Below the pieces are notes generated by a model. The model made no database searches. It was not told the DNA's origin and saw nothing but the letters and a program-made list of their open reading frames with translations. Below, piece after piece: positions 2,002-54,056 of a DNA stretch of 64,000 bases. Where the stretch lies: UHGV virus genome UHGV-0034108, one strand, 5' to 3'. Every line of letters begins with the position of its first letter. The stretch's first letter is position 1. Made by a program: the position numbers and the translations under genes. Source of the stretch: a virus.

Positions 2002-2010
2002 GATAGTTAA

Positions 2011-2081: not shown

Positions 2082-2160
2082 TTATGATTATACTTATGTC
2101 CTCTAAATGTTTTTCTTACTGCAAATATAACAAAAAAGTTAGTATAATATAACAAATGTG

Positions 2161-4487: not shown

Positions 4488-4512
4488 AATAGATTAATGC
4501 TTATATAGTTTG

Positions 4513-5754: not shown

Positions 5755-5760
5755 GATTAT

Positions 5761-6780
5761 TTATCTTTGTGATTTCCAGATTTCAACAAGTTTCCCCTTT
5801 CCGAGCTTTTTTACCAAATCACTCGGGTCCTTGCATTGAAGTTCAGATGGTATGCAGACATTACGTAATTTTGGATAGAGTGCCATAAGTTTCCTGGCAT
5901 TATCCTGACCCGGATTATCGTGTTCATGACTAAAATCATTGTCATACCAGATATACACTCTCTTAAATCCATCAAAAACCTGTTTCATGACTTGTGGTTT
6001 AGGAAGATAACCTTCCCCCTGTAGTGACATTGCTGGAATGCCCAAATTATACCACAGGCACATGGCATCCTTTCTTGATGATGTGATGATGACTGCTCTG
6101 TTTGACTTTATTTTAGCAAATGCAAATGCCTGTCTCCAGAGATCCCAGACGGAAGCATCATGTTTCGACAACCACTTCATTGTAGTCGAATAAGGCTGGT
6201 ACAGCTTGATGCTTTCCGTTCCGTCTTTCCATTCGAAATAGGCATAGGCATACTTATCCATAGGTACAGTAACCGTTCTCGACTTTCCATCCTCAAGTTT
6301 TGTAAAGAAGGCATGAGATATGGGAAATACATTGCACCATTTGGCAAACTTCTCGGATATTCCGTAAGATTTCCAAAATTCCACATCCCAATCTTTCCAC
6401 TCACGTATTTTTACCTTTATTGTAGAATTGCCGGTGAGATGTATTTTACCCTTGTATTTTCGTATCAGACTTGCCCGTGGTATTTGATTTTCCGTATCGA
6501 GCTTTATCTTCAACAGGGCTTCCTTGTACGTAACATGCCATAGTTTAGCAAGAAGCGATATTGCACTGCCGCTTTCCCCGGTGCCGAAATCTTTCCAAAA
6601 GACGACGCCGCCCCTCTCCTGCATAGAGAAAGAAGGGCGCTCGTCATCTTCACGCAACGGTGATCGACACGTACACGGAAAGCAGTCTATACCAACATAA
6701 CGACGGATTATATCTTTATCGGATAGTGATATGTCGTCGCGTGTTATGGAAAGACTGCTTCTTTTTGTAGATGTAATCAT
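5761..6780 (-). CDS. DnaG-like DNA primase (divergent zinc-binding and Toprim-like regions)
   Basis: CFPCTCRSPLREDDERPSFSM...GESGSAISLL resembles the DnaG CHC2 zinc-finger block (CPFH.E.TPSF...G.G.AI.F). The second Cys pair is missing. A Toprim-like DxD motif is present (YIWYDNDFSHEHD). Overlaps the SSB-like gene by 4 nt. Confidence 0.55.
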   Translation of the reverse strand: MITSTKRSSLSITRDDISLSDKDIIRRYVGIDCFPCTCRSPLREDDERPSFSMQERGGVVFWKDFGTGESGSAISLLAKLWHVTYKEALLKIKLDTENQIPRASLIRKYKGKIHLTGNSTIKVKIREWKDWDVEFWKSYGISEKFAKWCNVFPISHAFFTKLEDGKSRTVTVPMDKYAYAYFEWKDGTESIKLYQPYSTTMKWLSKHDASVWDLWRQAFAFAKIKSNRAVIITSSRKDAMCLWYNLGIPAMSLQGEGYLPKPQVMKQVFDGFKRVYIWYDNDFSHEHDNPGQDNARKLMALYPKLRNVCIPSELQCKDPSDLVKKLGKGKLVEIWKSQR

Positions 6781-7739
6781 TGTGCAAACGGAAGATCATC
6801 GTCATCCTCAATGTAATTACCCTCATCGTCAAACATTGTCTTCGGCTGCGCAACATCCGTAGCTGTCTCCTTATATTCCCTTACAGGAAGAGAACTGTAA
6901 GTATATTCACCACGGATAGTCTTGCCGGCAGCACGCCTGTCTGCAACAGATGCCACGAACTTGTCAATGAGTGTCCTTGCGCGTGTATACTCACCTGTAT
7001 TTCTGTCGACAGGCATTCCATTCCCGATGTATCCTGAGTTAAGGAATGACTGATATGTCTTGTTGTCATCGGTCGTCATGACTCCGAGCACTACTTTCAC
7101 TCTGTTGTCAGGCTGAAGTGCAAGATATTCGGCAATTTCAGACACATCGCCATCGCAAATCTTTCCCCAGTCATCTACAGTAAGTCGTCCCGGATTCTTT
7201 GATGGAGTCCATCCGTTCTTTGTCCTGTCAAATATCTGAAGAGGAGTGATGTTGAGGTACTTGAAAAGGAAGCTTACAAGCTCTTCCTCTCCGATATGGC
7301 AGGCTTTGTACGGCGTGCTGATATTTGCAGGCTGTCCATTCTTGTAGATTGGGACTTTTCCTGCCTTGAACTCCTCCTTCGTCACCCACGCGGTACGACC
7401 ATAGCAGTCAATCACCTTGCACTTGTCGCCAGCCGCATTGGTCTGTACTCCTTTCTGGCACCAGAAGTCAAGAGACACTACCGGTTTCTCGTCAAGATCC
7501 TGAATCTGAACCAGAAGCCTTACCCTTGTCGACTGCGTTTCACGTCCATCAGGAAGTGTCTTTGTAAGGATATAGTTCGGCTCTGCGGCATCTTCTGGGA
7601 TATTCCAACCGAATTTGCGGAGTTTGGCGTTGTCGGGATTGACTGCCAAGACATTGATGGAGGCAACTCCTACATACTTTCTGATGTCCAAGAACTCGCC
7701 GTTTGCGGCTTCTTTGCTTGCATTTACGTTTTCAATCAT
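6777..7739 (-). CDS. Putative ssDNA-binding protein with an SSB-like acidic C-terminal tail
   Basis: The C-terminus ...DDEGNYIEDDDDLPFAQ resembles the SSB C-terminal interaction tail (DDDIPF). Located between the primase and helicase genes. The N-terminal domain was not independently verified as an OB fold. Confidence 0.5.
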   Translation of the reverse strand: MIENVNASKEAANGEFLDIRKYVGVASINVLAVNPDNAKLRKFGWNIPEDAAEPNYILTKTLPDGRETQSTRVRLLVQIQDLDEKPVVSLDFWCQKGVQTNAAGDKCKVIDCYGRTAWVTKEEFKAGKVPIYKNGQPANISTPYKACHIGEEELVSFLFKYLNITPLQIFDRTKNGWTPSKNPGRLTVDDWGKICDGDVSEIAEYLALQPDNRVKVVLGVMTTDDNKTYQSFLNSGYIGNGMPVDRNTGEYTRARTLIDKFVASVADRRAAGKTIRGEYTYSSLPVREYKETATDVAQPKTMFDDEGNYIEDDDDLPFAQ

Positions 7740-7763
7740 AGCTGTAAAAAATTAATAATGTTT

Positions 7764-8123
7764 TTATTGTTGTTTTTCGTCTTTTGTGAGGAGTTCGGGA
7801 TTTTCGAATGGAGGCATTGCCACTTGATGATATTCCTTTTCCTTTCCTTTGCATCGAAGTTCCCAAATGTCTTCTGGTTCTTCACCGTCCTCCTGAAGTA
7901 TAACAAGCACATTCGGGTGTCTTGAAGCAACAGTTTCTACTTCATTAGTAAGGTCATAATATTTTCCTTCAATACATCCGTAACTGATAAGATCCAGAAT
8001 GTCTCCTTTATACTTCGAGCTTTCTACAAGGTCTTCCTGAAATGCTTTTATTGCCTTTGGAGTACCTTCGGCTGTAAGTGAGTAGTTTGTACAGTAGCTC
8101 ATGGTAGTATCTCCTATTTCCAC
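7764..8123 (-). CDS. Hypothetical protein (119 aa)
   Basis: ORF in the co-oriented operon. Its start overlaps the end of 8114..8596. Confidence 0.55.
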   Translation of the reverse strand: MEIGDTTMSYCTNYSLTAEGTPKAIKAFQEDLVESSKYKGDILDLISYGCIEGKYYDLTNEVETVASRHPNVLVILQEDGEEPEDIWELRCKGKEKEYHQVAMPPFENPELLTKDEKQQ

Positions 8124-8596
8124 TCCTCAGGCTCATCTCCCCAATCGTCGTCATCATCATTTATCTCCTGTGATTCTGACGTCTCCCACTCGGATGTCTC
8201 TGCTTCAGGTTTAGATTCAGATGCTGTCTCAGGTTCAGCGGCCTCCTCCTCTGAAGTTTCTTCTTCTGTGTCTTCTTCATTGTTTTCCGGGAAGATTGTA
8301 TCGACAACCTTCTCCTCTACAGGTTCCTTTTCGGCTTCCTCAACAGCCTTGTTTGCAGTTTCTTCCGCAACGGGTGTTTTCGGTTCATCTGTAAAGCATA
8401 CCATGGTTTTGTATGCGGAAATCTGCCCTTCCTGCATTCTCAGCAGTTTCTCAAGGTCGGCTTTCTCCTTGTCAGCAAGTGCCTTGTACTTCGCATCAAC
8501 CTTTTCGATTTCCTGCTTCGTAATCTCCATTGCCTTTGTTGAGGATGCAATGATCGTGTTGATCTCTTTGATAAGTTTTTTATTGTCTGTAATCAT
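8114..8596 (-). CDS. Highly acidic coiled-coil protein (160 aa); possible DNA-mimic or regulatory protein
   Basis: The N-terminal heptad-like segment is rich in K/E. The C-terminal 70 aa are about half D/E (…EEDTEEETSEEEAAEPE…DDDDDWGDEPEEWK). Confidence 0.6.
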   Translation of the reverse strand: MITDNKKLIKEINTIIASSTKAMEITKQEIEKVDAKYKALADKEKADLEKLLRMQEGQISAYKTMVCFTDEPKTPVAEETANKAVEEAEKEPVEEKVVDTIFPENNEEDTEEETSEEEAAEPETASESKPEAETSEWETSESQEINDDDDDWGDEPEEWK

Positions 8597-8626
8597 AATG
8601 TTGGTTGTAATAATTAAATGAAACGA

Positions 8627-9718
8627 TTATAATTTATAATGTGATATGTAAATATCAGGTATATTAGCAGTTACGCCATTAAGGAAGCTGTCGTCCTTGG
8701 TTCCGTCAAATACAGGAATCCATATTACCGGATTTTTACTTCTCATAATGCGTCCGATGCTCTGAACAGTGATTCGTTCAGTTCCTCCGAGCTGGGTTAT
8801 TACACCGTGTTCGATGTCTACCAGATTCTGTCCTTCGATAAGTTTTCCCACTACAAAGAGAGAGTTTATCTCCTTACTGTTGAACTTTTCAAGAAGTTTT
8901 GCCGATGTTGGAGTCTTGGATGTGAATGCCCTTTCCTTACATAGAGATTCAGCCTGCTTTATGGATGCACAGAAACAGAGGAATCTCCTGTTCTTATTCT
9001 GAAGTCCATTGCATATATATCGTACGGCATCCTCCTTAATTTCTCCAAGGAAATGTTTTCTTGCAACTCCGGCACTGAACATCTTTAGTTTGTTCATCTT
9101 CGTTGGATTGTCATTAAAGGCAGCTTTGGCTTCTTTCACTTTCTGTTCAAGAATGTCGTACATTCCCTTTGCAGACAATGACATCCCTCTGTACCAGTAC
9201 CTGCGACGAACTCTATCAATGCTGATATGACAGACATTAACCTTCGGCATTGGAAGAAAGCCATTCCGGATAGCATGTTCAAGTGTAATTACAGATTTTT
9301 GAAAGTGTCCATAAGCATTTTCCAGAGCTGCTTTCTCATCGTCTGTAATGACAGCACCAAGTGCCAAGACATAGTTTCCTGATACGGTACGGCAAATTTC
9401 TCTGCGTATGTCTGTATCTACATGCGGCGCTTCATCAAATACCAAAAGGCCCCACGAGGTGTTTTCATATTTCTTGAAGGAAGCATAGCATGCAATCTCG
9501 ACCCCATAAGGGCTGACATCGAACTTTTCAAACTCAGTAATCCAGTTGGCAATATTGTTCTGTTCCGGAACGAGAATCAGGCAAGTGGTGCCGGGATTGT
9601 TTCTCAGGAAGTTCAAAGCCACCTGACTTTTTCCGACACCGGTTGCCCATTGACAGATAACCCTGCGTTCACGTTCAAGAACACGTGCAACGCTATTCTG
9701 TAGTTCCTGTCTCGTCAT
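8627..9718 (-). CDS. Superfamily-2 (DEAD/DEAH-like) helicase
   Basis: Walker A QWATGVGKSQVAL. Motif II LVFDEAPHV. C-terminal motif VI-like QSIGRIMRS. Confidence 0.75.
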   Translation of the reverse strand: MTRQELQNSVARVLERERRVICQWATGVGKSQVALNFLRNNPGTTCLILVPEQNNIANWITEFEKFDVSPYGVEIACYASFKKYENTSWGLLVFDEAPHVDTDIRREICRTVSGNYVLALGAVITDDEKAALENAYGHFQKSVITLEHAIRNGFLPMPKVNVCHISIDRVRRRYWYRGMSLSAKGMYDILEQKVKEAKAAFNDNPTKMNKLKMFSAGVARKHFLGEIKEDAVRYICNGLQNKNRRFLCFCASIKQAESLCKERAFTSKTPTSAKLLEKFNSKEINSLFVVGKLIEGQNLVDIEHGVITQLGGTERITVQSIGRIMRSKNPVIWIPVFDGTKDDSFLNGVTANIPDIYISHYKL

Positions 9719-10526
9719 CGTTGAGGAATATCTGTGACAGGTCCATCTTCAGGTTGTTGTTTTCATCAGACTCGCCAACTACAAACTGTTTTCCCCGAAG
9801 ATGAGCCGGTCGTGCTTCTCGTAATGTACCATCACCGCCGGCAAAGGAGACGATAGTCTTGTTCTTCTCGCGGTAAATGAATCCTATCGCATCAGCCTCA
9901 CCACAGATGATGTCAGCAAGCTTACCTGCAAGGTCTACCGAATACTCTGTAGATTCCTGATTGTTGAGGTTCACCTGTCTGTCCTTCACATGGCAGACGA
10001 GGATGAGAGTTTCACACATCGGAGGCATGAACATGTGTATCACCTCTTTCAGTGCGTTTCTAAGATAGAGATAGCCGCCGCCATTCGGCAATTGACGTAC
10101 ATCAGCCTTTGGATCTGGAACAGGCTTGCCGTCAACGAGAATGAGATTTCCGTTTCTGTCTCGTTTCAAACCCCACTTTGCACCCATCTGAGTATTTCTG
10201 TAAAGCTGTGCGGCATAAGACAGACACATCTCCTCAAGCCTTGTGGCATTATCTATGGTGATGAACCTGTATGGACGCTTGCCGGTCTTCTTTATCTCTT
10301 CGTTTATCTTTGCCCGAATCGCAAAGATATCCGCTACGTTTCTCGCATCGACGGACATAACCTCAAGAGAACGATAACCATCTTCAAGGTCAATGATGAG
10401 ATTACTGTCAAGCGATGCAACGGCACTTGACTTTCCCGATTTCGGTCTACCAAAGAGAACCAATAATCTCGGATTATAAGTCTGTGCCTTTCTTCTTTCT
10501 GTAGGCAATGTAATTTCTTTTGGCAT
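9693..10526 (-). CDS. RecA-fold ATPase, Sak4/AAA_24-like (phage recombination/replication ATPase)
   Basis: Walker A LVLFGRPKSGKSS. Hydrophobic strand with acidic end, LILVCHVKD. Size and organisation typical of phage Sak4-like proteins. Confidence 0.6.
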   Translation of the reverse strand: MPKEITLPTERRKAQTYNPRLLVLFGRPKSGKSSAVASLDSNLIIDLEDGYRSLEVMSVDARNVADIFAIRAKINEEIKKTGKRPYRFITIDNATRLEEMCLSYAAQLYRNTQMGAKWGLKRDRNGNLILVDGKPVPDPKADVRQLPNGGGYLYLRNALKEVIHMFMPPMCETLILVCHVKDRQVNLNNQESTEYSVDLAGKLADIICGEADAIGFIYREKNKTIVSFAGGDGTLREARPAHLRGKQFVVGESDENNNLKMDLSQIFLNDDETGTTE

Positions 10527-10529
10527 AAT

Positions 10530-11786
10530 TTATTTGTTTAGAATTTTGTTAATCAATGCAAGCAGCATCAATGACCCGCTCTTTCTTTGTTGACGATAAG
10601 ACTTTATGTCTTTTGCTCTTTGGTAATACTTCGCTACACCGTTTATGTCATCCGGTCTTGGCAGTTCTTCAAAGTCACAGACGGCACCGTCAAAGAACAG
10701 TGGGCATACACCGCCCATTTCTCCATTCCTGTTTGCTATGACATACAGGAATCTTCCGTAGTTACGAAGTCCCTGCCCGGTCTCGTCCTGAATCTTATAT
10801 CCAAGCCAGGCTGGTAGACCGAACTTTGACGGGTCAAAAAGACCAAGAACTATATCGGCATCTCTTGAAGTGTACTTCGAATCGGAGAGACCGGCTGCTG
10901 ACGGGAGCATCTTCTTCTGCTTTATCGCTTCCAGACCCTCCGTTTCAGACGCCTGTTGCTGTATCGCCACGCAGGTGTAGTTGAACCTGTTTCGGAGATA
11001 CTTCACGAAATATTCGCTCATTTTGTCAACGGCATCTTTCGTTCTGAATCCCTGCTCCTTATCCAAGAGGCTGACATGATCGATGAGGACAATCTTATAA
11101 TGATTCGGGTCATCCTGCACATAGGAGTCGAATACCTCAACTTCCTTTCCGGCAAGTCCGTTGGACTTCATCTTGTGGGTCGTGTACTTGCCAACCGATT
11201 TCGCGTATTTCTCGCACACGCGAAGTATCCCAGTCGGGTTGGTGTCCTCTGTTTCAAACTGCACGCAACTCTCGAAGAACCGGATGCGCTCCTGATATTT
11301 CTCGCTCCTCAGTTTTTCCAGCGCCTCTTCCGGAACCGGATAGTCGCTGGATGTTGAGCGAAGATCGGACGGTGACAGTCTTATACCGTCAAGGGAATAC
11401 AGCAGATGCGAGAGATACCTCTCTATCACCTTCTGCACAGCCTCCTCAAGGGCAAAGTATATGATGTGAACAGAGCATTTTTCCGGATATTCAAAAGCAT
11501 AATCCAGAACTGTGTACAGATACAGAAAGTTAGCGAGGTTCGTCTTACCAACTTTTTGGTTTGCTGTGCAGACGACATATTGTCCCTGTTCTATGCCCGG
11601 AAACTCGTTTCTGAATCTCTCGAACGGAAGAGGAATACAGTTGGTGCCACCGTGGAGCACATTGTTTCTCCTTTCCTCAAGATTGTCAAGTACTCCGGCG
11701 ACGGAGCTTATGTCGTTTACGACCATCGCGTACTCCTCGAACTCCTCGTCGGTAATTCCGAGCGTAGTGTTATATCCCTCTATCAT
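10530..11786 (-). CDS. DnaB-like replicative helicase (C-terminal RecA-like domain)
   Basis: Walker A CTANQKVGKTNLA. H2-like IVLIDHVSLL. Q-rich H3 (CVAIQQQASE). H4-like DADIVLGLFDPSKF. Confidence 0.75.
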   Translation of the reverse strand: MIEGYNTTLGITDEEFEEYAMVVNDISSVAGVLDNLEERRNNVLHGGTNCIPLPFERFRNEFPGIEQGQYVVCTANQKVGKTNLANFLYLYTVLDYAFEYPEKCSVHIIYFALEEAVQKVIERYLSHLLYSLDGIRLSPSDLRSTSSDYPVPEEALEKLRSEKYQERIRFFESCVQFETEDTNPTGILRVCEKYAKSVGKYTTHKMKSNGLAGKEVEVFDSYVQDDPNHYKIVLIDHVSLLDKEQGFRTKDAVDKMSEYFVKYLRNRFNYTCVAIQQQASETEGLEAIKQKKMLPSAAGLSDSKYTSRDADIVLGLFDPSKFGLPAWLGYKIQDETGQGLRNYGRFLYVIANRNGEMGGVCPLFFDGAVCDFEELPRPDDINGVAKYYQRAKDIKSYRQQRKSGSLMLLALINKILNK

Positions 11787-12301
11787 ACGACCTCCCCGAA
11801 CTCGTTGAGCGAAATCTCGTTCTCGTCGGCATCGGGAACCCCGATGTCATCCGAAGTGAGATAGTCAGCGAATACGGACTTGTAGGTGTAGGCTATCCGT
11901 CCGTCCTTTCCGACCATCTTCTCCTGCTTGAAGATAAAGTACTTGAGCAGCATCATATATTTGCAGCTGCCTTCGAACTGTGCGAGGTATCTACGACCTG
12001 CACGGAGGCACTGTTCTATAGTATAGTTGTCCCCGAGCTTGTAATACTTCCAGATGAACTCCAGTCGCTTTTGAATATTGGGGACAGAGTCTCGCCATGG
12101 CCATTTCCCATCCTTCTCCCCTGCTGGCCAGAGTTTCCTGAGACCAGTGGCTACGGCTTCGAGAAAGGCCATTCCTCCCTGAGGTTGTTGGACAACCTCA
12201 AGGGCATCGGTGAACCCGCGTATGTAGGCGCACCGTTCAGAGGTGCCGTCGGCATATACAGCCGACGCCCTCCTGATGATTTCACTTCTTGTTATTTCCA
12301 T
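11783..12301 (-). CDS. Hypothetical protein (172 aa)
   Basis: ORF coupled to the helicase gene by a 4-nt overlap. Confidence 0.6.
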   Translation of the reverse strand: MEITRSEIIRRASAVYADGTSERCAYIRGFTDALEVVQQPQGGMAFLEAVATGLRKLWPAGEKDGKWPWRDSVPNIQKRLEFIWKYYKLGDNYTIEQCLRAGRRYLAQFEGSCKYMMLLKYFIFKQEKMVGKDGRIAYTYKSVFADYLTSDDIGVPDADENEISLNEFGEVV

Positions 12302-15323: not shown

Positions 15324-16352
15324 ATGATTACGCAATGTTATACCTAAACTCGTTTTTATAAGCCAAGGCAGCGACCACGAGCCTATCAAAGAGTTTGTCT
15401 CCGAATGTCCTGCGGTTGAACTTGTAGCAGAACTCGTTCAGATAGCTTTGAAGGTAGTCGGGTCTGATGTCGTGATAGACGTCCAGCAGGAGCCGTTTTG
15501 CGTTGCTGATTGCGATATGAACCCACGGGAGTAGCTTACCGACCTGCTTTGGCTCTATGACCTGATGCACGTGTTTACTTACGAGTGACTTTATATTTGT
15601 ATATGACGTTGAATCGTCAGAAGTTATGGTTGAACTTGGATTGACATACATCCTCACCTTTCCGTCAATGGTTTCCGACTTGAGATCGTTGATGACGAGC
15701 ATCTTGATGTGCTTGACTGCGGTAGGCTTGTCGGAGGTTTTCTTCTGAGTCCCATCGGAGGTCTCGGCCAGGACGAGGACCGCAGTTTTCTTCTGGCTTC
15801 CGCGCCCGCGTTTCTGCGGCTCGTCCTTCTTGCCCTCAGGGGTCTCGGTGGAGAAGAACCCCTCGTCCATCTCCACTATCCCACACACCTGGTATTGCGC
15901 GTCCCGCTTGCCCATGATACTCCGAAGCTTATGAAGCATCGCCCAGATTGGCATATAGTTCTTGTGACCCAGCTGACGCTGGAGCTCCGATGCGGAGAAA
16001 CTCTTCCGCGTCGAGGTGAGCAGGTGCATCGCCGTGAACCAGTACATCAGTGGCAGTTGGCTGCCGTGCATTACCGTATTCGCCTTCAGGCTCTGGCGGT
16101 AATGGCAGCCCTTGCACTCGAAGCATTTCTTATCCTTCTTCCAATAGTGCTCCGTGCAGCCACACTTTGGACAGACAACGCCCTGCTTCTCCCTGTATTC
16201 CCTAAGCTTGTTCTCGCAGCTTTCCTCATTGGGAAACTCCTGCATAAAGTCTATAAGTTTCATTGTATCTTCGTTTGTTGGGACAAAGATACTGTTCGAC
16301 TGTGCAAAAACGCTGCGCAAGTTATGACTTAGGTATAACATTAATTATTCAT
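15324..16352 (-). mobile_element. IS1595-family insertion sequence, about 1.0 kb (inner boundaries 15334 and 16342 are firm; outer boundaries approximate)
   Basis: aatgttatacctaa at 15334-15347 is the perfect reverse complement of ttaggtataacatt at 16329-16342. The repeat extends imperfectly outward to about 24 bp. It brackets a single transposase gene. No clean target-site duplication was seen. Confidence 0.6.
15328..16263 (-). CDS. IS1595-family (ISXO2-like) DDE transposase
   Basis: N-terminal zinc ribbon MKLIDFMQEFPNEESCENKLREYREKQGVVCPKCGC...CFECKGC, typical of IS1595 transposases. The middle segment ...KRGRGSQKKTAVLVLAETSDG... matches the ISXO2-like DDE domain. The start was placed at the internal Met (16261-16263); the upstream 26 codons overlap the terminal inverted repeat. 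Confidence 0.8.
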   Translation of the reverse strand: MKLIDFMQEFPNEESCENKLREYREKQGVVCPKCGCTEHYWKKDKKCFECKGCHYRQSLKANTVMHGSQLPLMYWFTAMHLLTSTRKSFSASELQRQLGHKNYMPIWAMLHKLRSIMGKRDAQYQVCGIVEMDEGFFSTETPEGKKDEPQKRGRGSQKKTAVLVLAETSDGTQKKTSDKPTAVKHIKMLVINDLKSETIDGKVRMYVNPSSTITSDDSTSYTNIKSLVSKHVHQVIEPKQVGKLLPWVHIAISNAKRLLLDVYHDIRPDYLQSYLNEFCYKFNRRTFGDKLFDRLVVAALAYKNEFRYNIA

Positions 16353-17220
16353 AATTTTTATTTGTTTCGACCGAGGATTCTCATCCTCACGCACTATGCC
16401 TGACGACTTTTTATACTCGCATAGTCGAGTTACCCTTGCTTTTTCCTGAGAGAAATATTATATTATTATAATATTTATCTCCCTTTAAAGAAATATAAAA
16501 CTTTCTGTATAAGGAGGGGTCTGGGGAACCACCGGAAATCAAATCCCCCGGAAATCTCAAAAATCCGGGGAATTTCATTCCTGATGAGAGAAAGGACGAG
16601 GAGCGGAAACCTACCAGGGAAGAGACAGTCTACCTCTCGAACAGAAGAAAGACCAAAGCTATTTCTCTTGGTCCTTCAAGAAAGCCTTGAAAGCTTTTAA
16701 CTCTGACTTCTTCACGGGATAAAGAAACCCCATAAAGCAAACCAGAACAAGTCTTTCCTCAGGCTTTTTAGTATTTGATTTTTCCATGGCAGAATCAAAG
16801 AGCTAAAAATCAAGAAGTTAAGAATCAGACTCACGCACGTGTATACGCACGCGCGAGGAAACCCGAGCCGGAAAGAGAAACTCCAAAACCGAGCGGCGAC
16901 CGGTAAGCAATAGTTAAATGCGCCGGGCCCTTGGAGTCGGACTTTCGCGGAAAGGGCATAGAAATGGCCTTCTCAGCCGTTTTTTCTCTTCGGACGATAA
17001 CTTATATGTCTGAGAAAAGATAATGGCTCAGAGGGGCATTTCTGAGGAAAGTCTATTTCTGACTAAAAAATCAAGGCGGAAATTCAAGTCAGAAATAGGC
17101 TATGGCAGTCGAATCAAACCTCAACAAGCCGTTGGGAGCAGGTTAAAGTCCATAAGAAAAACTTATGGATAAAGCCCGACTTTGGTAGTCAGTTGGGTCA
17201 GATTCGACTGCCAGTTGGGT

Positions 17221-17250
17221 CAGTCAAGGAACAAAAAAGAGAGGCCCGAA
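17221..17250 (-). terminator. Rho-independent terminator (minus strand) downstream of gene 17261..17614
   Basis: On the minus strand the sequence reads GAGGGGCC-TTCG-GGCCTCTC followed by TTTTTTGTT. Confidence 0.7.
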
Positions 17251-17260
17251 GGCCCCTCGA

Positions 17261-17614
17261 TTATCCGCGGAACTCGCGCTTGTCTCCGTGGCAGAGAAGA
17301 TGTTTCGGGGCACCCGAAGTCACTTCGCCTGTCTCCTCATCTGTGTAGAAACCGACGCGGAACTCAAAGTTCTCGATAGGCTCTCCGACCTTTGCGAGGT
17401 CCTCTGCCGTCGCCTCATTGCGAGGCCAGAGGTCTGTTTCAACAATTCTACCGTCTGGCGCAGTGGCACGGACGTGGACGAGGACGCAAGTTTCCTCGTT
17501 TAGCTTTGCTGTCTTGGTGCTGAAGGATGTGTTCACGAATCCGCATGCCGGGAAATACAACTGAGCGTCATAATCCTGATAACGCTCGTTTTCTTTGAAC
17601 TGTACGTTTGTCAT
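17261..17614 (-). CDS. Hypothetical protein (117 aa), first gene of the minus-strand module
   Basis: ORF with coding-like composition. Followed by a strong intrinsic terminator. Preceded on the minus strand by a 5' UTR GC hairpin (cggggg-cccat-cccccg). Confidence 0.6.
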   Translation of the reverse strand: MTNVQFKENERYQDYDAQLYFPACGFVNTSFSTKTAKLNEETCVLVHVRATAPDGRIVETDLWPRNEATAEDLAKVGEPIENFEFRVGFYTDEETGEVTSGAPKHLLCHGDKREFRG

Positions 17615-18594: not shown

Positions 18595-20157
18595 ATGGCT
18601 GATATTAAAGAACTTGCAGAAAGGCTGTTGCAGCTCGGATACACGAAAGACAATCTTTATATTGATGGTGGTGATACTAACGATGGTGGTTATTATGGTG
18701 GTGAGCTTGCACCTGCTGTTGTTAAGCCTAAACCTGTGGTGGTTAATCTTAGAACATCGAGAGTTAGTAAAGATTTTCCTATAAGTCACTCTGCTTTAGA
18801 TCATACAGGAACTCCAAATGAGGAATCTTCTTTCTTAATAAGCAAAGGTTGGGATAGCACATACAATTTATTGACTAATAATTGCAGTGATTATACATGT
18901 AGGTTTCTTGAGGATGCTCTTGGTATATCGTTAACGAATGGTATAACAACGCCTGGTAAACTGCGCAGAGCTATGGCTAAGTCTCCAAATCTGTTGGATA
19001 CATTTAAAACGCCGGATGGTGTTTCAACTATACAGAAAATACAAATACCGTGGTACGATTACAGAAAAGCCTTAGAAGCACAACGGCAGAGGGATTTGTA
19101 TGATTATGAACAAAATGTAAAAAAGAGTCAGGGCGAACAAGTTGCTAAGTATGGCGTTAATAAACGGATTGACAAATTAAACAAAGAACATCCGAAACTT
19201 CAATATTATATAGATAGCGACGGGAATGTCATAAGGCATGAAAATCAATATGTGTATCCTTCTTCCAAGCCTTATGCACACGGTGGTCTGCTGCGCAGAT
19301 TTGACGGCGGGGGACAAAAGGAAACAGCAGAAGTGCTTCCAGAAGTTGTTGTAACTCCATACGGAAATTATGTTAACTATACCGGTGAGGAAACGACGGT
19401 TCCATCCATTTCTGATTTCTTTGATGCTAAAGCTAATGCGGCAAGGGTTAATGCAGTTGGTAATATGTTGAATACAAAACATCCTGTGGTTCCTGCGGTC
19501 CCGAATGCCTTGGCCAGAAACCTGCTTGTACGTTTCGGCGTTTCCGATGAAAGAGCGGCTGGACTTCTCGGCTATGATAAGCATCCGCATACTTGTATAG
19601 CTACAACTACATCGCAATATAATGATCCGGAAGCTTTTGTTCCCGGTAACATTACATTTGATAAAAACAGGACTGGTTTCGTTCAGGTAGGTGATTATGA
19701 TTATATTCCTGGAGATCTTGTGAATCTTTATTATAAAGGTACTCCTTTTCACTCAACAATGGTTACGGGTGTTACAAAGAGTCCTCTTGGTCCAGAATAC
19801 GGATCGCCTATGTTGACATATTCTAATGGCGGAGTTGATGTTCCGGGGGAAGAAACCCACATGCGATATAATATGAATAATCTGTATGACGATGGGGATG
19901 ATGAGACTCCGGACTTTGGACTTATGCCTGGAAATGTAGGAATAGGTCAATACAAAGTATTCAGATATGTGGGTAGTCCCAGCAGGAAGATTGATTGGGG
20001 TCGTGAATACAACTCAAAGTACGGATATACAGTGGATGAGAAAGGTAATGCTGTTGAGCCTCGTGATAAAATGTACGATTTGTTGGCAAAGATGCAACAG
20101 TATGGATACAAGTTTGAGAAAACTTCGGATGGCAAGCTTAGGGTAGTTCGTAAATGA
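18595..20157 (+). CDS. Large protein (520 aa) with a possible C-terminal papain-like (NlpC/P60/CHAP-type) Cys/His peptidase region. Candidate lysin or virion-associated hydrolase.
   Basis: Gly-rich N-terminus. Contains an RRFDGGG motif also found in protein 43816..45801. Candidate nucleophile HPHTCIATT, with His about 60 aa downstream (TPFHSTMVTG). The assignment is speculative. Confidence 0.7.
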   Translation: MADIKELAERLLQLGYTKDNLYIDGGDTNDGGYYGGELAPAVVKPKPVVVNLRTSRVSKDFPISHSALDHTGTPNEESSFLISKGWDSTYNLLTNNCSDYTCRFLEDALGISLTNGITTPGKLRRAMAKSPNLLDTFKTPDGVSTIQKIQIPWYDYRKALEAQRQRDLYDYEQNVKKSQGEQVAKYGVNKRIDKLNKEHPKLQYYIDSDGNVIRHENQYVYPSSKPYAHGGLLRRFDGGGQKETAEVLPEVVVTPYGNYVNYTGEETTVPSISDFFDAKANAARVNAVGNMLNTKHPVVPAVPNALARNLLVRFGVSDERAAGLLGYDKHPHTCIATTTSQYNDPEAFVPGNITFDKNRTGFVQVGDYDYIPGDLVNLYYKGTPFHSTMVTGVTKSPLGPEYGSPMLTYSNGGVDVPGEETHMRYNMNNLYDDGDDETPDFGLMPGNVGIGQYKVFRYVGSPSRKIDWGREYNSKYGYTVDEKGNAVEPRDKMYDLLAKMQQYGYKFEKTSDGKLRVVRK

Positions 20158-20761
20158 CAGTTACCTTTCTGAATGCTCCCTGTGAAATCATCTTGTCGTA
20201 TATCTGAGCGTCTATAAGCGAGAACGGAAAGACAAACAACGGCTCATGGTAGCATTCGTGAATGCCTGCGGTTGTCTTCAGTTGTATTTCGCCAGAGATG
20301 TCAGACTTTATTATCTCCGCGTCATTATATATAAGGGAGTATCGGCATTCTTCACTCCCGCTTTTAATGCGACCAAAAGCAAATCCGCCATTCGTTTTAT
20401 ATAGGTCACATGAACCATAGTTGACCGTCAGGTTTGATGCTGAGTTCTTGCATGCCTTCCTTACGACGACTGACTTTGTGAAGTCACGTTTGAGAAGCAC
20501 TGTGTCTTTCTTCGAATGCTCCATTAACCGGCATTGCTCAGCCGCTTCCGGACATACGAATTGACCTATTGTGTAGTTCAGAAGGTTCAGTGTTCTTATT
20601 GTCACCCTCTCGTAGACGGAAAGATTTTCACCGTTCTCTATCTTTTCCTGTGATTTGTATTGACCGTATATGACGTATATGAACCCGTTGACGATTGTGA
20701 TTATCAGAGTTGCTACAATCATTGCCGGAAGCATTTTCGCAATTAGTTTTCGGTTTTTCAT
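20138..20761 (-). CDS. Membrane-anchored protein (207 aa; N-terminal TM anchor, 6-Cys extracytoplasmic domain) encoded antisense to neighbouring genes
   Basis: MKNRKLIAKMLPAMIVATLIITIVNGFIYVIY is a type II signal-anchor-like segment. The 3' end overlaps the convergent gene 18595..20157 by 20 bp. Confidence 0.6.
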   Translation of the reverse strand: MKNRKLIAKMLPAMIVATLIITIVNGFIYVIYGQYKSQEKIENGENLSVYERVTIRTLNLLNYTIGQFVCPEAAEQCRLMEHSKKDTVLLKRDFTKSVVVRKACKNSASNLTVNYGSCDLYKTNGGFAFGRIKSGSEECRYSLIYNDAEIIKSDISGEIQLKTTAGIHECYHEPLFVFPFSLIDAQIYDKMISQGAFRKVTVIYELP

Positions 20762-21564
20762 CTTGTTTTTTGAGAGATTACTCTCGCGCGTGATTAAAGT
20801 TTTGAAAGTAAAAAGTCTAAAAAATTAAGACTTGTTATGTTTTATTGTCTTGTTAATGATGTTTAGCCGGAGGCAGGTGGGGTGAAGGTGGTTGAGCTTC
20901 TTGAGCAATCTTCTCCCCCTCCCACGAAGCCGGTATTTTCTCCGGCATGGCAGGATTAGAAGATTACCGGTGACAGGCTGTCGTGCTTCCTGGTGTGAAG
21001 TATGGTCCCGCCTCCCTCGTTCCGTCACAGTGCCAGTACGGACTTCCCGAGATTAGCGATCTGGACATCGCCCGCTGGACCCTCTCAGGAACGGCAGGGT
21101 CTCACGCCTGTCGTCTTCTCCGGGTTTTGGTTCTCCAGCTGCCCCTCAACAGAGTCTTTTAAACTACTGCCGACCTTAAGGTCTGACCTACGGCTTTTTC
21201 AGATGTTTCGAGTGGCTACGCATTTCTGCGGACGAGCTACATCACGTTTGCTTTTGATTCGGTGACAGCGCTGTGTGTTCCGCACTACAGGCCTTTGCTT
21301 TCTCTGTCACCGTCGAACGAAAAAATCCGCCCGCAAGTTTCCTCGTCTCCGAGAAATAGCCACTCGAACTTGCAGGCGGATTATATATGGAGTTGCAATC
21401 CATAGTCCTATTTTGTACTGCAAGAGTGGGCTACCAAAAGCAGCACAACAAAGGTATGGATTATTGTTGAAAACTGCAACACTATTCACATAAATTTTCA
21501 TATTTTTCTTCTTTTTCTGTCTTTAATACAGCAAATGAAACAAAAAAGTTTTCTATATAACAAG

Positions 21565-21600
21565 TTTGTTTTGTTTATTGATAATAAACCACTATATTTG
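21565..21600 (+). promoter_or_regulatory. Bacteroidota-type promoter: TTTG (21570-21573), 19-nt spacer, TATATTTG (21593-21600)
   Basis: Matches the -33 TTTG / -7 TAnnTTTG consensus with the canonical spacer. Confidence 0.5.
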
Positions 21601-21623
21601 TCGCAACAAAAACACTTATAGCC

Positions 21624-21764
21624 ATGAGGATGTATACCAGAGCTTTCAATAAGATGAGCGAACTTAACAAATTCGTAAATGAGAATGGAATCCAGAAAGA
21701 CAACATAGTCAGTATCTTTCAATCAGTCGACGAGACATACCTCCTTGTATATTATGGCGAGTAG
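21624..21764 (+). CDS. Small hypothetical protein (46 aa), not in the ORF track
   Basis: ATG at 21624 lies 24 nt downstream of the promoter -7 box. Translation: MRMYTRAFNKMSELNKFVNENGIQKDNIVSIFQSVDETYLLVYYGE. Confidence 0.35.
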   Translation: MRMYTRAFNKMSELNKFVNENGIQKDNIVSIFQSVDETYLLVYYGE

Positions 21765-25376: not shown

Positions 25377-27641
25377 GTGACTGACACTGTAATCATACCA
25401 ACCAATGAATATCAGACTCCGATAACGAAGGAACTGCTTGATATGTACCCGGATGAGGTGCAGGAGCAGTTCCTTGAGTTCGTCGATACAGTACCTCTTA
25501 TAAAATACATGATAGGCACTGACAGGAAGCGTGCCCGTGATTTGGCGAGGGATTCTAAGGGCAGGATTATAGTGGATATAACTCATCCCCATATATTGGA
25601 GGATATGGATTACTTCCGTCCAGCTGCAAAGTTCTTTCAGGAGAACAAATGTTATACTTTGCTTCAGCCGAACTCCAATTCCAAGAGTGAGTTTGGTAAA
25701 TGGCTTTCTGAAGAATTTAGACGTTGCCGTGAGGGTTATGTCCGTGAATCTGATGGCGAGTGGGTCACTGGGCAGATGTATTGGTTTCTCAACTACTGTC
25801 CGATAATGCTGAACAGACTTGCTCCAGGGACTGATATATATGTTAGGATTGAGGAGTTTCCAGATTTCTGGGAAGGTATCTATTACAGATTTCATTACAT
25901 AGATCAGGCTCGTCATTCCGGAAAACACTGTATGGAGCTTGCTCGCAGAGGTTGCGGGAAAAGCTACTCACTCGCATCACTTATGTCACATAACCTCATA
26001 CTTGGGGAAAACGAGGTAGCCAAATCGCGTGTTACGACTGTTTTGACGGCAGGTACAAAGGAGTACCTTGCGGATAAGGACGGTACGTTCACGAAATTTT
26101 CACCGATGATTGACTTCTGTGCTAATAACACATTCTTTCCAAGGCTGATGCTGAAGCGCTCTCCTTCCGAGATGATATGGAGGATGGGTTACAAGAATAG
26201 CAATAAGAATGAACTCGGTTCTCTCAATTCAGTGATGGGACTTTCCGTAAAAGATGATGAGGGAAAGATTAGAGGAAAACGAGGATATATCTTGTTTGAG
26301 GAGATGGGTAACTACGCAAACTTCAAGGAGGTGTGGGATAACGTGCGCGACTCTGTAAAGGAAGGAAGTCATGTGTTCAGCCTTTTATACGCTGTAGGTA
26401 CTGCTGGTGATGACGAGTCTGACTTCTCCGGTGTCCGTACAATTCTTTATAATCCTTCAGCGTATGAGGTCTATGCACTTGTAAATGTTTATGATAAAGT
26501 AGGCAAGGGTACAAACAAGTTTGCATATTTCTTTCCATCATATATATCAAGAGCCGGATGCATGGATAAGGATGGAAACTCAGATGTCGTGAAGGCACTC
26601 TTCGAGATACTCATGGAGCGGTGGATGGTAAAGCAGGGTGGAGATGCCAAGTCACTCTTGTCAAGAATAGCACAGATGCCTATCACACCGGCTGAGGCAA
26701 TCCTCAAGGTGAAGTCTAACTTCTTTCCTGTGACAATGCTTACAGAAAGATTGAGGCAGCTCGACCAGGACCCGCACGCCTACGATGACGTGTATGTCGG
26801 GACTCTTATTGAGGTGAATGGTAAGGTTGAGTTTCGAGCAACGGATGATGTTCCTATAAGGCAATGGCAGGTGGACAATACTAATCAGGGTGCTCTTGAG
26901 ATATACGAGATGCCTGCATCCGGACATATACCAAGCAACAGGTATATAGCAAGTCTCGACCCTGTTGATAATGATCAGGCTGAATCCACATCATTTTCCA
27001 GTTGCTTTGTGTTCGATCTGTTCACTGATAGGATAGTCGCTGAATACACAGGACGAATGCCATTTGCGGATGATAATTTTGAAATGGCAAGACTGATGTG
27101 CTTGTTTTACAATGCAACCATACTTGTTGAGGCCAATAAGAAAGGCTACTATGCGTATTTTGCAAAGAAGCATTGTACCTGGCTGCTTGCGGACTGTCCT
27201 GAATATTTACGAGATAGGCAGCTTGTGAAGTATTCGATGTTTGGATCTGCACAGAAGGGTGTGACAGTTAATGCTCCTATAATTGGGTTTGCTAATGGGC
27301 TGATACGTGACTGGCTGTGCAAGACAACAGCTGTTGAGGTTAAAGATGAGCATGGTCAGATTACAATCCAGCAAATACCTAATCTTTACAGACTTCGCAA
27401 CAGGGCACTTATTGAGGAGTTGATAGGCTACTCGGCAGAAAAGAATACAGACCGTGTACGTTCTCTTGCCCAGCTTATGCTGTACAGGGAGCAGTTTATA
27501 ATTCTGTATGGCGGTTCACCTGAATCAGGTGATGTGTCGAATGATGATGTTTCGTCTGATGAGTTCTTTGATCGTGACTGGAAAAGACAGACAGGATCTT
27601 ATAACGATTTTTATGAGTACATGAAGCAGTTTTTCAAATGA
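25377..27641 (+). CDS. terL: Terminase large subunit
   Basis: Walker A MELARRGCGKSYS. Walker B-like RGYILFEEMGNY. C-terminal RNase H-like nuclease motifs IASLDPVDND and ILVEANKKG. Length 754 aa. Confidence 0.85.
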   Translation: MTDTVIIPTNEYQTPITKELLDMYPDEVQEQFLEFVDTVPLIKYMIGTDRKRARDLARDSKGRIIVDITHPHILEDMDYFRPAAKFFQENKCYTLLQPNSNSKSEFGKWLSEEFRRCREGYVRESDGEWVTGQMYWFLNYCPIMLNRLAPGTDIYVRIEEFPDFWEGIYYRFHYIDQARHSGKHCMELARRGCGKSYSLASLMSHNLILGENEVAKSRVTTVLTAGTKEYLADKDGTFTKFSPMIDFCANNTFFPRLMLKRSPSEMIWRMGYKNSNKNELGSLNSVMGLSVKDDEGKIRGKRGYILFEEMGNYANFKEVWDNVRDSVKEGSHVFSLLYAVGTAGDDESDFSGVRTILYNPSAYEVYALVNVYDKVGKGTNKFAYFFPSYISRAGCMDKDGNSDVVKALFEILMERWMVKQGGDAKSLLSRIAQMPITPAEAILKVKSNFFPVTMLTERLRQLDQDPHAYDDVYVGTLIEVNGKVEFRATDDVPIRQWQVDNTNQGALEIYEMPASGHIPSNRYIASLDPVDNDQAESTSFSSCFVFDLFTDRIVAEYTGRMPFADDNFEMARLMCLFYNATILVEANKKGYYAYFAKKHCTWLLADCPEYLRDRQLVKYSMFGSAQKGVTVNAPIIGFANGLIRDWLCKTTAVEVKDEHGQITIQQIPNLYRLRNRALIEELIGYSAEKNTDRVRSLAQLMLYREQFIILYGGSPESGDVSNDDVSSDEFFDRDWKRQTGSYNDFYEYMKQFFK

Positions 27642-29319: not shown

Positions 29320-30849
29320 ATGCCAGGACGCATAAGCAACAATCAAATGGTTGGCGTTACTGCGTGGAAAGGTACGGTCACAAAGGACAATCACCTTTAC
29401 GGACTGTTCCGCACTAACCCGCAGATGGCCAGCGACGTAATGACTGTCCTCATGAGCAGCATGCATCTTCCAACGCTCGACACATACCTCTCAAAGGAGG
29501 TTCCGGTGCGCGAATACGAGGATGATTCAGAACTGTTCTGGGACGTGGTAGCTTCCTCAAGAAGGAATATTCCTCTTGTTGAGGCAAGGACAATGAGCGG
29601 AGAGACTGTCACTGCCGGTAAGGGCAATATCGGACAGAACTTCGAGCCTTTCTATCTGGTATTCCCGACAGACTGGTTTGCTCTCGGTGAGGTGCTCTGG
29701 GGTGAACTCAATGAGGTATACCCTATGATCGTAAAGGAAGAGGGGCGCCAGGAAGGGACGAACACTGTATATCTCGTTGAGATGTTCGGTGCCGATGGGG
29801 CAAAGGGTATTCCTGCTAAACAGCTTCTTGCTGGAAGGAAATTCAGTTGGGCATACGCTCCTGTAGAGGAGAACTTTTCACGTAAAGTCGGTGATGTAAG
29901 GTTCTCAACGCCGGTTTCTATGCGCGGCGATTGGCAGCGCGTCCGTCTTCAGCACAAGGTTGGCGGCAAGGAACTCGGAAAGAGGCTTGCTGCAAACATT
30001 CCTGTATCAAGGGAGGTCAACGGCAAGACCGAGACTGCCATTGCATCAAGGTGGATGCTCGCTGTTACATGGAAGATTGAGGAGACGTGGAACGAGTACA
30101 AGAATAACGCACTTGACCGTGGTGTATCAACCAGGATGGAGAATGGCGAGTATTCTAACTTCGGACTTTCCGGTCTTGCAAACAGGCAGGGTTCAGGATT
30201 CCGTCAGCAGCAGGCGGCAGGAAACCAGACATACTACACTAAATTCCGGATTGGTCTTATTGAGGATGCCCTCTATGGTATCTCGGCAGGAAAGCTGGAC
30301 TTCAGCAAGAGGAAGTTCGTAATCCGCACTGGAGAACGTGGAGCAATGCTGTTCAGCAAGGAGGCTAAGAAGGAGATGTCAGGTTGGATTCCACTTTATG
30401 GAGGTACAAGCAATGTTCCTTACATCAAGAGCGGAGCTTCAACAGATTTCGCTCCTAACGGAGTCTCTGTTACTGACCTTCAGATAACTAAATGGATTTC
30501 GTCTAACGGACTTGAAGCAACCATCATGATTGATTCAAGCAAGGACGATCTTCAGACTAACAAAATCATGCACCCACTTGGTGGTCCTGCGGAGTCATAT
30601 CGTTTCGATATCTTCTACGCATCTGACGAGGAGCAGCCAAACGTGCAGAAATGTATGGTCAAAGGTCAGCCAGAGTTGCGTGGATATCAGTGGGGTCCGT
30701 TTGCTAATCCGTTCACGGGAGAGATGAACAATGCTTCAGCTTCCTTTGATGAGGATGCGGCAATTGTACATTACAAGGCTACACTTGGTCTTGTGATTTA
30801 CGACCCGACAAGGTGTATATCACTTATACCTGCAATACTTCAGGCTTAA
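29320..30849 (+). CDS. Capsid morphogenesis protein, 509 aa. Major capsid protein candidate; portal not excluded.
   Basis: Its size matches crAss-like major capsid proteins (about 500 aa). It follows the scaffold-like gene. No diagnostic motif was seen. Confidence 0.65.
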   Translation: MPGRISNNQMVGVTAWKGTVTKDNHLYGLFRTNPQMASDVMTVLMSSMHLPTLDTYLSKEVPVREYEDDSELFWDVVASSRRNIPLVEARTMSGETVTAGKGNIGQNFEPFYLVFPTDWFALGEVLWGELNEVYPMIVKEEGRQEGTNTVYLVEMFGADGAKGIPAKQLLAGRKFSWAYAPVEENFSRKVGDVRFSTPVSMRGDWQRVRLQHKVGGKELGKRLAANIPVSREVNGKTETAIASRWMLAVTWKIEETWNEYKNNALDRGVSTRMENGEYSNFGLSGLANRQGSGFRQQQAAGNQTYYTKFRIGLIEDALYGISAGKLDFSKRKFVIRTGERGAMLFSKEAKKEMSGWIPLYGGTSNVPYIKSGASTDFAPNGVSVTDLQITKWISSNGLEATIMIDSSKDDLQTNKIMHPLGGPAESYRFDIFYASDEEQPNVQKCMVKGQPELRGYQWGPFANPFTGEMNNASASFDEDAAIVHYKATLGLVIYDPTRCISLIPAILQA

Positions 30850-54033: not shown

Positions 54034-54056
54034 TGCGTTTATAAACAGATATATTT

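Follow-up and report, generated by a model that had tools for sequence, protein, structure and literature searches.

In the 64,000-nucleotide (nt) stretch of the virus genome UHGV-0034108 analyzed here (the window), a GC-rich block at positions 20870–21420 probably corresponds to a structured noncoding RNA gene of ~580 nt on the minus strand, which would act on its own and represent an uncatalogued family of a Steigviridae-like sub-clade of crAss-like phages. Comparative sequence analysis indicates that the secondary structure of the block is kept by compensatory substitutions in the absence of any coding signal, that the RNA is read from the minus strand, that a conserved promoter of the Bacteroidota sigma-A type lies before it, and that its 5′ end forms a conserved module composed of a leader, a stable hairpin whose interior pairs with this leader, and a U-tract after the hairpin. 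As far as our searches reach, the element is distributed over a few lineages of crAss-like phages. The best reading is a new RNA family within a known kind, the large phage-borne structured noncoding RNAs.

The proposed RNA and its parts are given below in the direction of transcription, with related contigs denoted by L numbers. The 5′ end was placed from the promoter, and the 3′ end was set at the last conserved helix.

21477–21480, minus strand: −33-like element, read from the sequence as GTTG in the window and TTTG in L068 and L011
21449–21456, minus strand: −7 box TACCTTTG of the Bacteroidota sigma-A type (consensus TAnnTTTG)
20866–21444, minus strand: proposed RNA of ~580 nt, delimited by the conserved block in alignments A1–A4, covariation and strand evidence
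21418–21435, minus strand: leader segment A, GGUAGCCCACUCUUGCAG, with complementarity to the P1 interior and part of the 5′ arm of that hairpin
21324–21382, minus strand: hairpin P1, with a basal stem of 15–16 base pairs (bp) and a predicted energy of −32.5 kcal/mol
21320–21325, minus strand: U-tract after P1, U6 in the window
21190–21326, minus strand: 5′ domain, placed with model R2, containing a U-tract/A-tract helix and the hairpin CGGUGACAG/CUGUCACCG
21152–21168, minus strand: variable hairpin of 17 nt, recognized by alignment comparison
20993–21120, minus strand: central domain, three hairpins comprising four helices, one of them nested, with the conserved unpaired GACCAUACUU at the end
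20866–20992, minus strand: 3′ domain, a long hairpin (AAUCUUCU.../...AGAAGAUU) and a C-rich strand

The block has a GC content of 53.4% compared with 43.9% for the whole window, an excess of 2.7 standard deviations matched by 0.46% of equal-sized windows, and its 200-nt windows reach up to 58.5%. A preliminary description of the sequence had called the block GC-rich, which holds now that the shift has been computed and is significant, and its surroundings AT-rich, which is true only moderately for a genome of 44% GC. High GC is expected of a stable RNA fold in such a genome. The block had also been called poor in open reading frames (ORFs), and rightly so: the longest ORF under the standard code has 87 amino acids (aa), none is credible, and a Pfam scan of six block ORFs of 53–87 aa gave no match. 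Substitutions in the block have no three-base periodicity (p = 0.25–0.88), and indels that are not multiples of three account for 3/4, 10/10 and 12/15 of those counted. Neither a protein-coding gene nor a pseudogene is therefore supported by reading frame, periodicity, indels in threes or family match; the same observations speak against the earlier suggestion of a gene remnant, and no relative was found to carry a coding gene colinear with the block. Stop-codon reassignment is common among crAss-like phages. A gene hidden by such reassignment was considered and rejected, one standard-code ORF spanning position 54045 to the window end, and none of the alternative codes tried on the block opens a reading frame.

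Conservation of structure was assessed on alignment A4, which consists of seven sequences and from which RNAalifold derived a consensus of 125 pairs in 20 helices. Across the whole RNA, 95.5% of the cells fall into standard pairs, compared with 90.3% after column shuffling and 39–49% when the partner is slid by 1–3 columns. Double-changed pairs number 28, against 11.3 ± 2.3 in the shuffles (0/500 reach 28) and 3–6 with slid partners. For the central domain, the structure was written by hand, covariance model R1 was built from it, and the matches were re-aligned. Here, 96.4% of the cells are in standard pairs (column shuffles 80.7%, partners slid by 1–3 columns 33–47%), and 18 of the 29 pairs are double-changed (shuffles 5.7 ± 1.9, slid 0–3). 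Individual helices illustrate the compensation. The window's UUCCUGAGA/UCUCGGGAA is replaced by UUCCAGAGA/UCUCUGGA(U) in L068, by UUCGGGAAA/UUUCCCGAA in L011 and by UUCCGGCA/UGCCGGAA in L016, and the hairpin CGGUGACAG/CUGUCACCG of the 5′ domain becomes CGGCAGGG/CCCUGCCG in L068. We regard these covariation counts as strong support for the predicted structure, short of proof. Of the options listed in the preliminary description, a structured RNA is the one that covariation and the consensus structure strongly support.

The assignment to the minus strand follows from the G·U patterns, the one-sided changes and the consensus energy. One-sided changes convert U·G to U-A, G-C to G·U and G·U to A-U, and would leave C·A mismatches on the plus strand. 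The cells of the structure hold 101 G·U against 17 A·C. The consensus structure is more favorable on the minus strand, at −121.4 kcal/mol compared with −95.0 on the plus strand, with covariation terms of 7.75 and 2.93, respectively, and single-sequence folding yields z-scores of −2.6, −2.85 and −3.07 for the minus strand and −1.3 for the plus strand. Such a strand-asymmetric G·U pattern argues for an RNA rather than a DNA element.

The preliminary description also listed short inverted repeats. Both are present, and neither is a conserved pairing in relatives:

20866–72 and 20940–46: GCCGGAG and CTCCGGC
20972–78 and 21106–12: GACAGGC and GCCTGTC

A long-range pairing of GACAGGC with GCCTGTC, obtained with RNAalifold from four close variants, was rejected on the L068 lineage, in which the first arm changes to GUCGGAC, the second arm is unchanged and a local 7-bp hairpin is retained instead.

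The putative promoter consists of the −7 box and, by our own count, a −33-like element 19–20 nt upstream of it; every lineage has a promoter of this kind ~60 nt upstream. The TACCTTTG octamer is common to four lineages with the window's type of RNA (type A) and to L007, and L109/L110 have TATATTTG. The Bacteroidota sigma-A −7 box has been described as a consensus occupying −12 to −5 (PMC9723704), which together with the box at 21449–21456 would place the start of transcription near 21444. A leader of ~60 nt then precedes hairpin P1. This is the long-range hairpin of the preliminary description, which had placed its arms at 21334–21348 and 21385–21399 around a 36-nt loop; the hairpin is real, and those coordinates were wrong by 9–17 nt. 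The arms lie at 21324–21339 and 21367–21382, are 16 nt long and 94% complementary, and are spaced by 27 nt; their one mismatch reads as C·A on the plus strand and as a U·G wobble on the minus strand. Above the basal stem, P1 has an internal loop CGAGUGGCUA and a distal stem of 7 bp capped by a GAGA loop. The U-tract that follows is U7–U11 in relatives and UUUUCUUUU in L011. Predicted energies of P1 across five lineages range from −17 to −37 kcal/mol, each with a U-run or U-rich run after it, so that the element has the promoter-proximal stable hairpin and U-tract of an attenuator or riboswitch leader.

Complementarity between the leader and the P1 interior is found in six lineages, the sequences of which are unrelated from one lineage to another. 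The pairings, leader first, include:

Window: UAGCC(C)ACUC(UUGCAG) / (CUGCAAGUUC)GAGUGGCUA
L011: UCAGGAAGG / CCUUCCUGA
L016: UAGGAGC / GCUCCUA
L007: GACACCCGGGCCAAAACGAAAAC / GUUUUCGUUUUGGCUUGGGUGUC, a core duplex of 23 bp
L109: UAGCCAAGACACAC / GUGUGUUUUGGCUA, 14 bp

Compared with 1000 shuffles of the leader, the duplex has p ~0.1 in the window, 0.02 in L068, 0.065 in L011 and 0.03 in L016, and is reached by 0/1000 shuffles for both L007 and L109. Between the close relatives L011 and L106, an A-to-G change in the leader is matched by U to C in the interior, a compensatory switch from A-U to G-C. Leader, 5′ arm, interior and 3′ arm follow one another as in an H-type pseudoknot. In the window and L016, the leader pairing invades the 5′ arm of P1, as an antiterminator would, which it does not in L007. 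When folding is restricted to nested structures, the minimum-energy state of the window, L011 and L109 contains P1, whereas that of L007 and L016 contains the leader pairing. The U-tract can also pair with a conserved CUGRAAAAG at ~21201–21193, more than 100 nt downstream; in this helix (helix 3), 98% of the cells are paired with zero double changes.

The body after the 5′ module is a multi-helix region of ~450 nt. The 5′ domain, which model R2 matches in the identical copy L002 at 5409–5545 with 154 bits (window coordinates were converted by offset), also includes a conserved CCGAAUCAAAAG, a GNRA-capped hairpin and a UAGCCACUCG motif, and its helices 4, 6 and 9 have double changes. The variable hairpin is swapped wholesale in L003, from GUAGUUUAAAAGACUCU to UCCCGAAUGUGACGGAU, carries 25 additional nt in L068 and is absent from L011. 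Model R1, built on the central domain, scores 148 bits in the window, 138 in L068, 103 in L011 and 37 in L016. A search of the rest of the window for a target of the conserved unpaired GGACCAUACUU gave chance-level matches only. In the 3′ domain, the C-rich strand pairs with GAGGGG at 21148–21143, closing the 3′ half of the RNA (helices 11, 19 and 20).

Homologues were sought by exact-motif scans, on contigs encoding neighboring proteins and at terminase-anchored loci. Related Crassvirales contigs of at least four diverged lineages carry the element in the same slot. The block is identical to the window in L002 and 90–93% identical in L003/L004/L005/L006/L047, L030 and L067. It is more diverged in the NCBI metagenome-assembled contigs L068/L069/L070/L071 (~80% by eye from the alignment), and diverged homologues occur in L011 (= L033) and L106–L108, L106 deriving by its record name from a Hadza gut sample. 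L016 is very diverged and cut by the contig end, and model R1 recovers it with 36.6 bits (E ~1e-9). A BLASTN comparison with 50,697 phage records, a check of the kind proposed in the preliminary description, gave no match to the block in these deposited phage genomes. Searches of IMG/VR anchored on the 207-aa and 520-aa neighbor proteins returned nothing, nor did an exact-protein look-up of the 207-aa protein. Scanning IMG/VR with the motif AGCCACTCN{4,10}CTGRAAAAGCCG retrieved just two contigs, both already known; the JGI metagenomes yielded 33 matches, 1 of them genuine (L047), and 185,579 GTDB species genomes (one genome per species) yielded 32, none genuine. The element was thus not found outside crAss-like contigs in one motif scan each of the JGI metagenome collection and GTDB. 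A genome terminus or assembly break within the block, considered since L001 starts at window position 21282, was rejected as a storage chunk boundary: L010 ends exactly at the L001 start, and L030 spans the junction.

The same slot holds a second type of RNA (type B) in L007 (~300–1150) and L109/L110 (~2240–2790, minus strand), with a GC-rich, ORF-free body of 450–650 nt, the same type of promoter and the same leader/P1/U-tract module as the first type. L007 and L109/L110 share 74.5% identity across 110 nt, and the short motifs GGAAAAUGGG, GGGGAAGAAUC and GGUCAGAC are common to both RNA types. In L007, the gene caller places a 170-aa ORF over the element, which is probably spurious.

The block lies where the replication module of the phage borders on the structural module, ~4 kb upstream of the terminase gene. 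The preliminary description had placed it between divergent genes, and this arrangement stands: a minus-strand gene for a 207-aa protein (20761→20138) lies on one side, and on the other a plus-strand operon begins with a 46-aa gene (21624→) and extends to the terminase gene. The features that flank the RNA are:

21593–21600, plus strand: divergent sigma-A −7 box TATATTTG, preceding the 46-aa gene/terminase operon
20804–20837, minus strand: weak AU-rich hairpin (AAGUCU/AGACUU) and U-run, in the window's own lineage only
20783–20800, minus strand: conserved box ACUUUAAUCACGCGCGAG, 20–60 nt before the start codon of whichever ORF follows
20138–20761, minus strand: 207-aa ORF, downstream of the RNA

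The position of the element, directly upstream of the 46-aa gene and divergent from it, is the same in all lineages. L012, L014, L018, L111 and L113 have the same gene order without the element; the slot is taken by a converging gene and a terminator in L012/L014/L018 and by a spacer of merely 120–235 nt in L111/L113. In L019, it holds a transfer RNA (tRNA) gene, tRNA-Met(CAT) at 4444–4516 (minus strand), behind a promoter of the same type (TAGTATCTTTG) and in the orientation of the RNA. In Bacteroides phage crAss001 (Steigviridae; L104), the closest cultured phage by terminase (59% identity), the corresponding region at 1683–5807 has 23 tRNA genes, upstream of the terminase operon. In general, the slot seems to accommodate genes for stable RNAs.

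On the downstream side, the flank beyond 20866 is AT-rich, and the ORF that follows varies by lineage (207 aa, 86 aa, DUF4846, 93–105 aa or 183 aa). Before every one of these variable ORFs comes the conserved box (ACTTTAATCACGCGCGAG, 20783–20800) and then a small variable GC hairpin. The box is not a TAnnTTTG promoter, and a loose copy with three mismatches occurs at 16842–16855 (plus strand); its role may be that of an operator or of a promoter particular to the phage. The N-terminus of the 207-aa protein looks, from its sequence, like a membrane anchor. A homologue with 76% identity is encoded at 5363–5941 of L008, a bacterial-looking contig without the RNA, next to housekeeping-type genes (PmbA/TldD, FKBP, glycosyltransferase, TrkA), which suggests that the phage gene is a host-derived accessory gene.

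If the block is a stand-alone RNA gene, host RNA polymerase would start ~5 nt past the TAccTTTG box. The 5′ module could then form a pseudoknot that caps and stabilizes the RNA, or serve as a terminator/antiterminator switch that gates transcription into the body. After read-through, the U-tract would be reused as a helix strand with CUGRAAAAG, closing the 5′ domain, and the folded RNA would act alone, as an RNA-only or RNA–protein particle, as proposed for other large phage-borne RNAs.

Several points weigh against this reading. The alignments used for testing had also served to derive or fit the structures, which inflates the pair counts, and only 4–6 lineages contribute, several of them closely related. 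The promoter, the transcription start and both ends of the RNA are all inferred from sequence. The window's own leader/P1 pairing is individually weak (p ~0.07–0.1), and a 12-nt complementarity between 21357–21368 and 21207–21218 is invariant in its lineage and absent from L011. Type B is not linked to the first type by the models: run with filters off, none of R1, R2 and R3 detects L007, and L109/L110 escape detection by R1 and R3. A terminator-shaped hairpin is an odd start for a stand-alone RNA gene. At the other end, the 3′ flank has no consensus structure across lineages that could serve as a conserved terminator. The RNA may reach ~20804 if the weak hairpin of the window's lineage terminates it, or continue into the 207-aa gene; since no lineage-conserved terminator separates the RNA from the ORF, it could be a 5′ untranslated region (UTR).

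This last point leads to the best-surviving rival, in which the whole element would be a cis-acting 5′ UTR that times or gates expression of a swappable accessory gene, the membrane-protein gene downstream, with the leader, P1 and U-tract as an attenuator and the 450-nt body as a sensor or expression platform. In each lineage with flanking sequence (the L016 and L068 contigs end early), an ORF on the same strand directly follows the RNA. No TAnnTTTG box is seen between the RNA and the ORF (20762–20866). P1 and its U-tract have the classic shape of a terminator, the leader pairing of the window and L016 extends over the 5′ arm of P1, and the minimum-energy folds switch between two states across lineages. 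We nevertheless judge a cis-acting leader rather unlikely. The downstream ORF differs between lineages, and a bacterial setting that lacks the RNA also has a member of the 207-aa family. The body lies downstream of the terminator, whereas the sensors of known riboswitches and attenuators lie upstream. The conserved box at 20783–20800 and the small GC hairpins suggest that the ORF is controlled separately, and a weak hairpin with a U-run follows the RNA in the window's lineage. The comparison with attenuators and riboswitch platforms is likewise divided. Shared features are the promoter, short leader, GC-rich hairpin, U-tract and alternative leader pairing. In contrast to attenuators, the leader pairs mainly with the hairpin interior or loop, as an H-type pseudoknot and not a simple either/or switch, there is no known aptamer, a large conserved structure comes after the terminator, and neither a conserved regulated gene nor a sensor upstream of the terminator was found.

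That the block acts at the DNA level, as a replication origin or a packaging, recombination or attachment site with its repeats as cruciforms or protein sites, is very improbable. It does lie in the large noncoding stretch that divides the replication module from the structural one, ~4 kb upstream of the terminase gene, and it has many inverted repeats. However, G·U pairing is upheld on one strand only, where the complement would be A·C, and whole hairpins are swapped with pairing kept, a behavior typical of RNA. Cumulative GC skew has its minimum elsewhere, at ~16–16.5 kb, and the window has no second copy of the element, no direct repeats and no iterons. Close relatives lack it (L012, L014, L018, L111 and L113), which is unexpected for an essential origin or packaging site, and nothing supports the recombination site listed among the earlier options. 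A decayed coding gene or acquired foreign DNA without present function is scarcely credible: the composition is unlike that of the surrounding genome, the 207-aa neighbor has bacterial homologues and an IS1595-type transposase gene lies 5 kb off, but the block is more conserved than its flanking genes (~95% identical in close relatives, compared with just 79% for the adjoining 207-aa protein), its substitutions are compensatory and not random, it has no periodicity, frame conservation or Pfam match and a conserved promoter stands in front of it, while its conserved syntenic position, the lack of a deposited-phage match and GTDB and JGI motif scans that find crAss-like contigs only speak against the acquired cargo proposed earlier.

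We compared the proposed RNA gene with catalogued families. An Rfam scan, also suggested in the preliminary description, found no family match: Rfam 15 at gathering thresholds gave nothing in the block and, in the whole window, only a Pistol ribozyme at 16366–16430; at E ≤ 10, the region 20600–21700 gave only snoRNA/miRNA noise of 13–15 bits; and at E ≤ 5, five homologue loci gave nothing relevant. By these models, the RNA belongs to no Rfam 15 family, including GOLLD, ROOL, OLE, HEARO and raiA as well as RNase P, transfer-messenger RNA (tmRNA), 6S, group I and II introns and riboswitches.

The closest kind is that of ROOL and GOLLD, which are likewise several hundred nt long, rich in helices, phage-borne and without an associated protein gene; the element is a large, covariation-backed, multi-helix phage RNA with no partner ORF, as expected of this kind. 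ROOL and GOLLD are often adjacent to tRNA genes. The window, by comparison, has no tRNAs, and the slot in L019 and crAss001 holds tRNA genes. The RNA does not match the Rfam models of ROOL or GOLLD even at E ≤ 10, and given this failed covariance-model test it is, as judged by the models, not a member of either family. It further differs from them in belonging to Crassvirales, another virus group with another host phylum, and in its promoter-proximal, terminator-shaped 5′ module. According to a cryo-EM study, ROOL, GOLLD and OLE form RNA-only homo-oligomers (PMC12286853).

Our literature searches found no described structured RNA family in Crassvirales, only a remark on phage phi14:2. In this phage, two lengthy stretches of intergenic sequence (g004–g005 and g005–g006) are transcribed above most genes throughout infection, and middle and late genes are read by the host RNA polymerase (bioRxiv 10.1101/2020.03.07.982082). 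They resemble the block in being long and intergenic, in lacking ORFs and in coming from a crAss-like phage of the Steigviridae; ~1.7 kb at 2904–4602 of phi14:2 carry no current gene annotation. Unlike the block, the phi14:2 region is not GC-enriched (18–35% GC), and model R1, which covers the central domain only, reached at best 8.9 bits (E 0.47) there with filters off (L105, NC_021806 1–9000). Nor did R1 find a homologue in the tRNA-array region of crAss001. Phage tRNA arrays resemble the element in occupying the same slot with stable-RNA genes. The RNA is ~8 times the length of a tRNA, and ARAGORN detected neither a tRNA nor a tmRNA architecture in the window or the homologue loci that carry the RNA. 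Among ~36 nearby ORFs scanned with Pfam or PHROGs, no reverse transcriptase, Cas, TnpB or IscB partner was found, and the idea of a guide or template RNA was therefore rejected; the sole mobile-element gene among the scanned ORFs is the IS1595-type transposase gene 5 kb from the block.

A bolder version of the stand-alone RNA gene can be put forward tentatively, and we would not rely on it: the element may be the founding member of a Crassvirales-specific class of large ornate RNAs, made by the host RNA polymerase from a strong sigma-A promoter, with an unusual 5′ device, a trans function during infection and an interchangeable slot. Pairing between the leader and the terminator loop would then control RNA synthesis or stability, with the U-tract recycled in the body. 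In trans, it might serve as a ribozyme, as a scaffolding or cage-like RNA, or as a decoy aimed at a host factor or defence system, and the slot would interchangeably accept this RNA, the type B RNA (L007/L109) or tRNA genes.

CrAss-like phages are described as including the most abundant human gut virus (bioRxiv 10.1101/2020.03.07.982082). The element offers a concrete test object, with a defined putative promoter, clear predicted boundaries and ~20 covariation-backed helices, and the combination of loop–leader pairing and U-tract reuse could be a new coupling of termination to RNA folding. Practical impact is limited for now, as the family is rare and the case rests on sequence analysis.

Elsewhere in the window, the terminase large subunit is a 754-aa protein encoded at 25377–27641 (phrog_6681), followed by the Crassvirus major capsid protein at 29320–30849 (PF23898). 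Minus-strand genes at 955–12301 include a DnaB-like helicase, a SNF2-type helicase, a primase-like protein and a PD-(D/E)XK nuclease. The Pistol ribozyme (RF02679, 16366–16430, minus strand) scores 55.7 bits (gathering score 34.5; E 2e-7), and 25 nt separate it from the start codon of the downstream IS1595-type DDE transposase ORF (15328–16341, minus strand), identified by PF12762 (in the identical gene of L002) and phrog_25593. The ribozyme would fall within the 5′ UTR of the transposase. Between it and a 117-aa gene, ~830 nt at 16431–17260 have no ORF of ≥90 aa and are GC-rich in part (50–57% at 17100–17600). This region is 88% conserved in an IMG/VR relative (L010 56–1277), and the cumulative GC-skew minimum of the window, at ~16–16.5 kb, comes just before it; it could hold an origin or another RNA.

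The terminase gene of an IMG/VR relative has two insertions of ~1.0–1.2 kb (L001 4648–5706 and 6694–7883) that are absent from the window. The terminase ORF of L114 (6574–8417) is given as 1090 aa, with weak LAGLIDADG and Hom_end matches, and in crAss001 a ‘group I intron endonuclease’ is located beside the terminase gene, which suggests that the terminase genes of relatives carry inteins, or introns with homing endonucleases. Finally, two giant plus-strand ORFs lie 3′ of the structural genes, at 48136–53835 (1899 aa) and at 54045–64000 (>3318 aa, running off the window end). By analogy, their size and position recall the large virion-packaged proteins of crAss-like phages, including the RNA polymerase, that have been reported (bioRxiv 10.1101/2020.03.07.982082).

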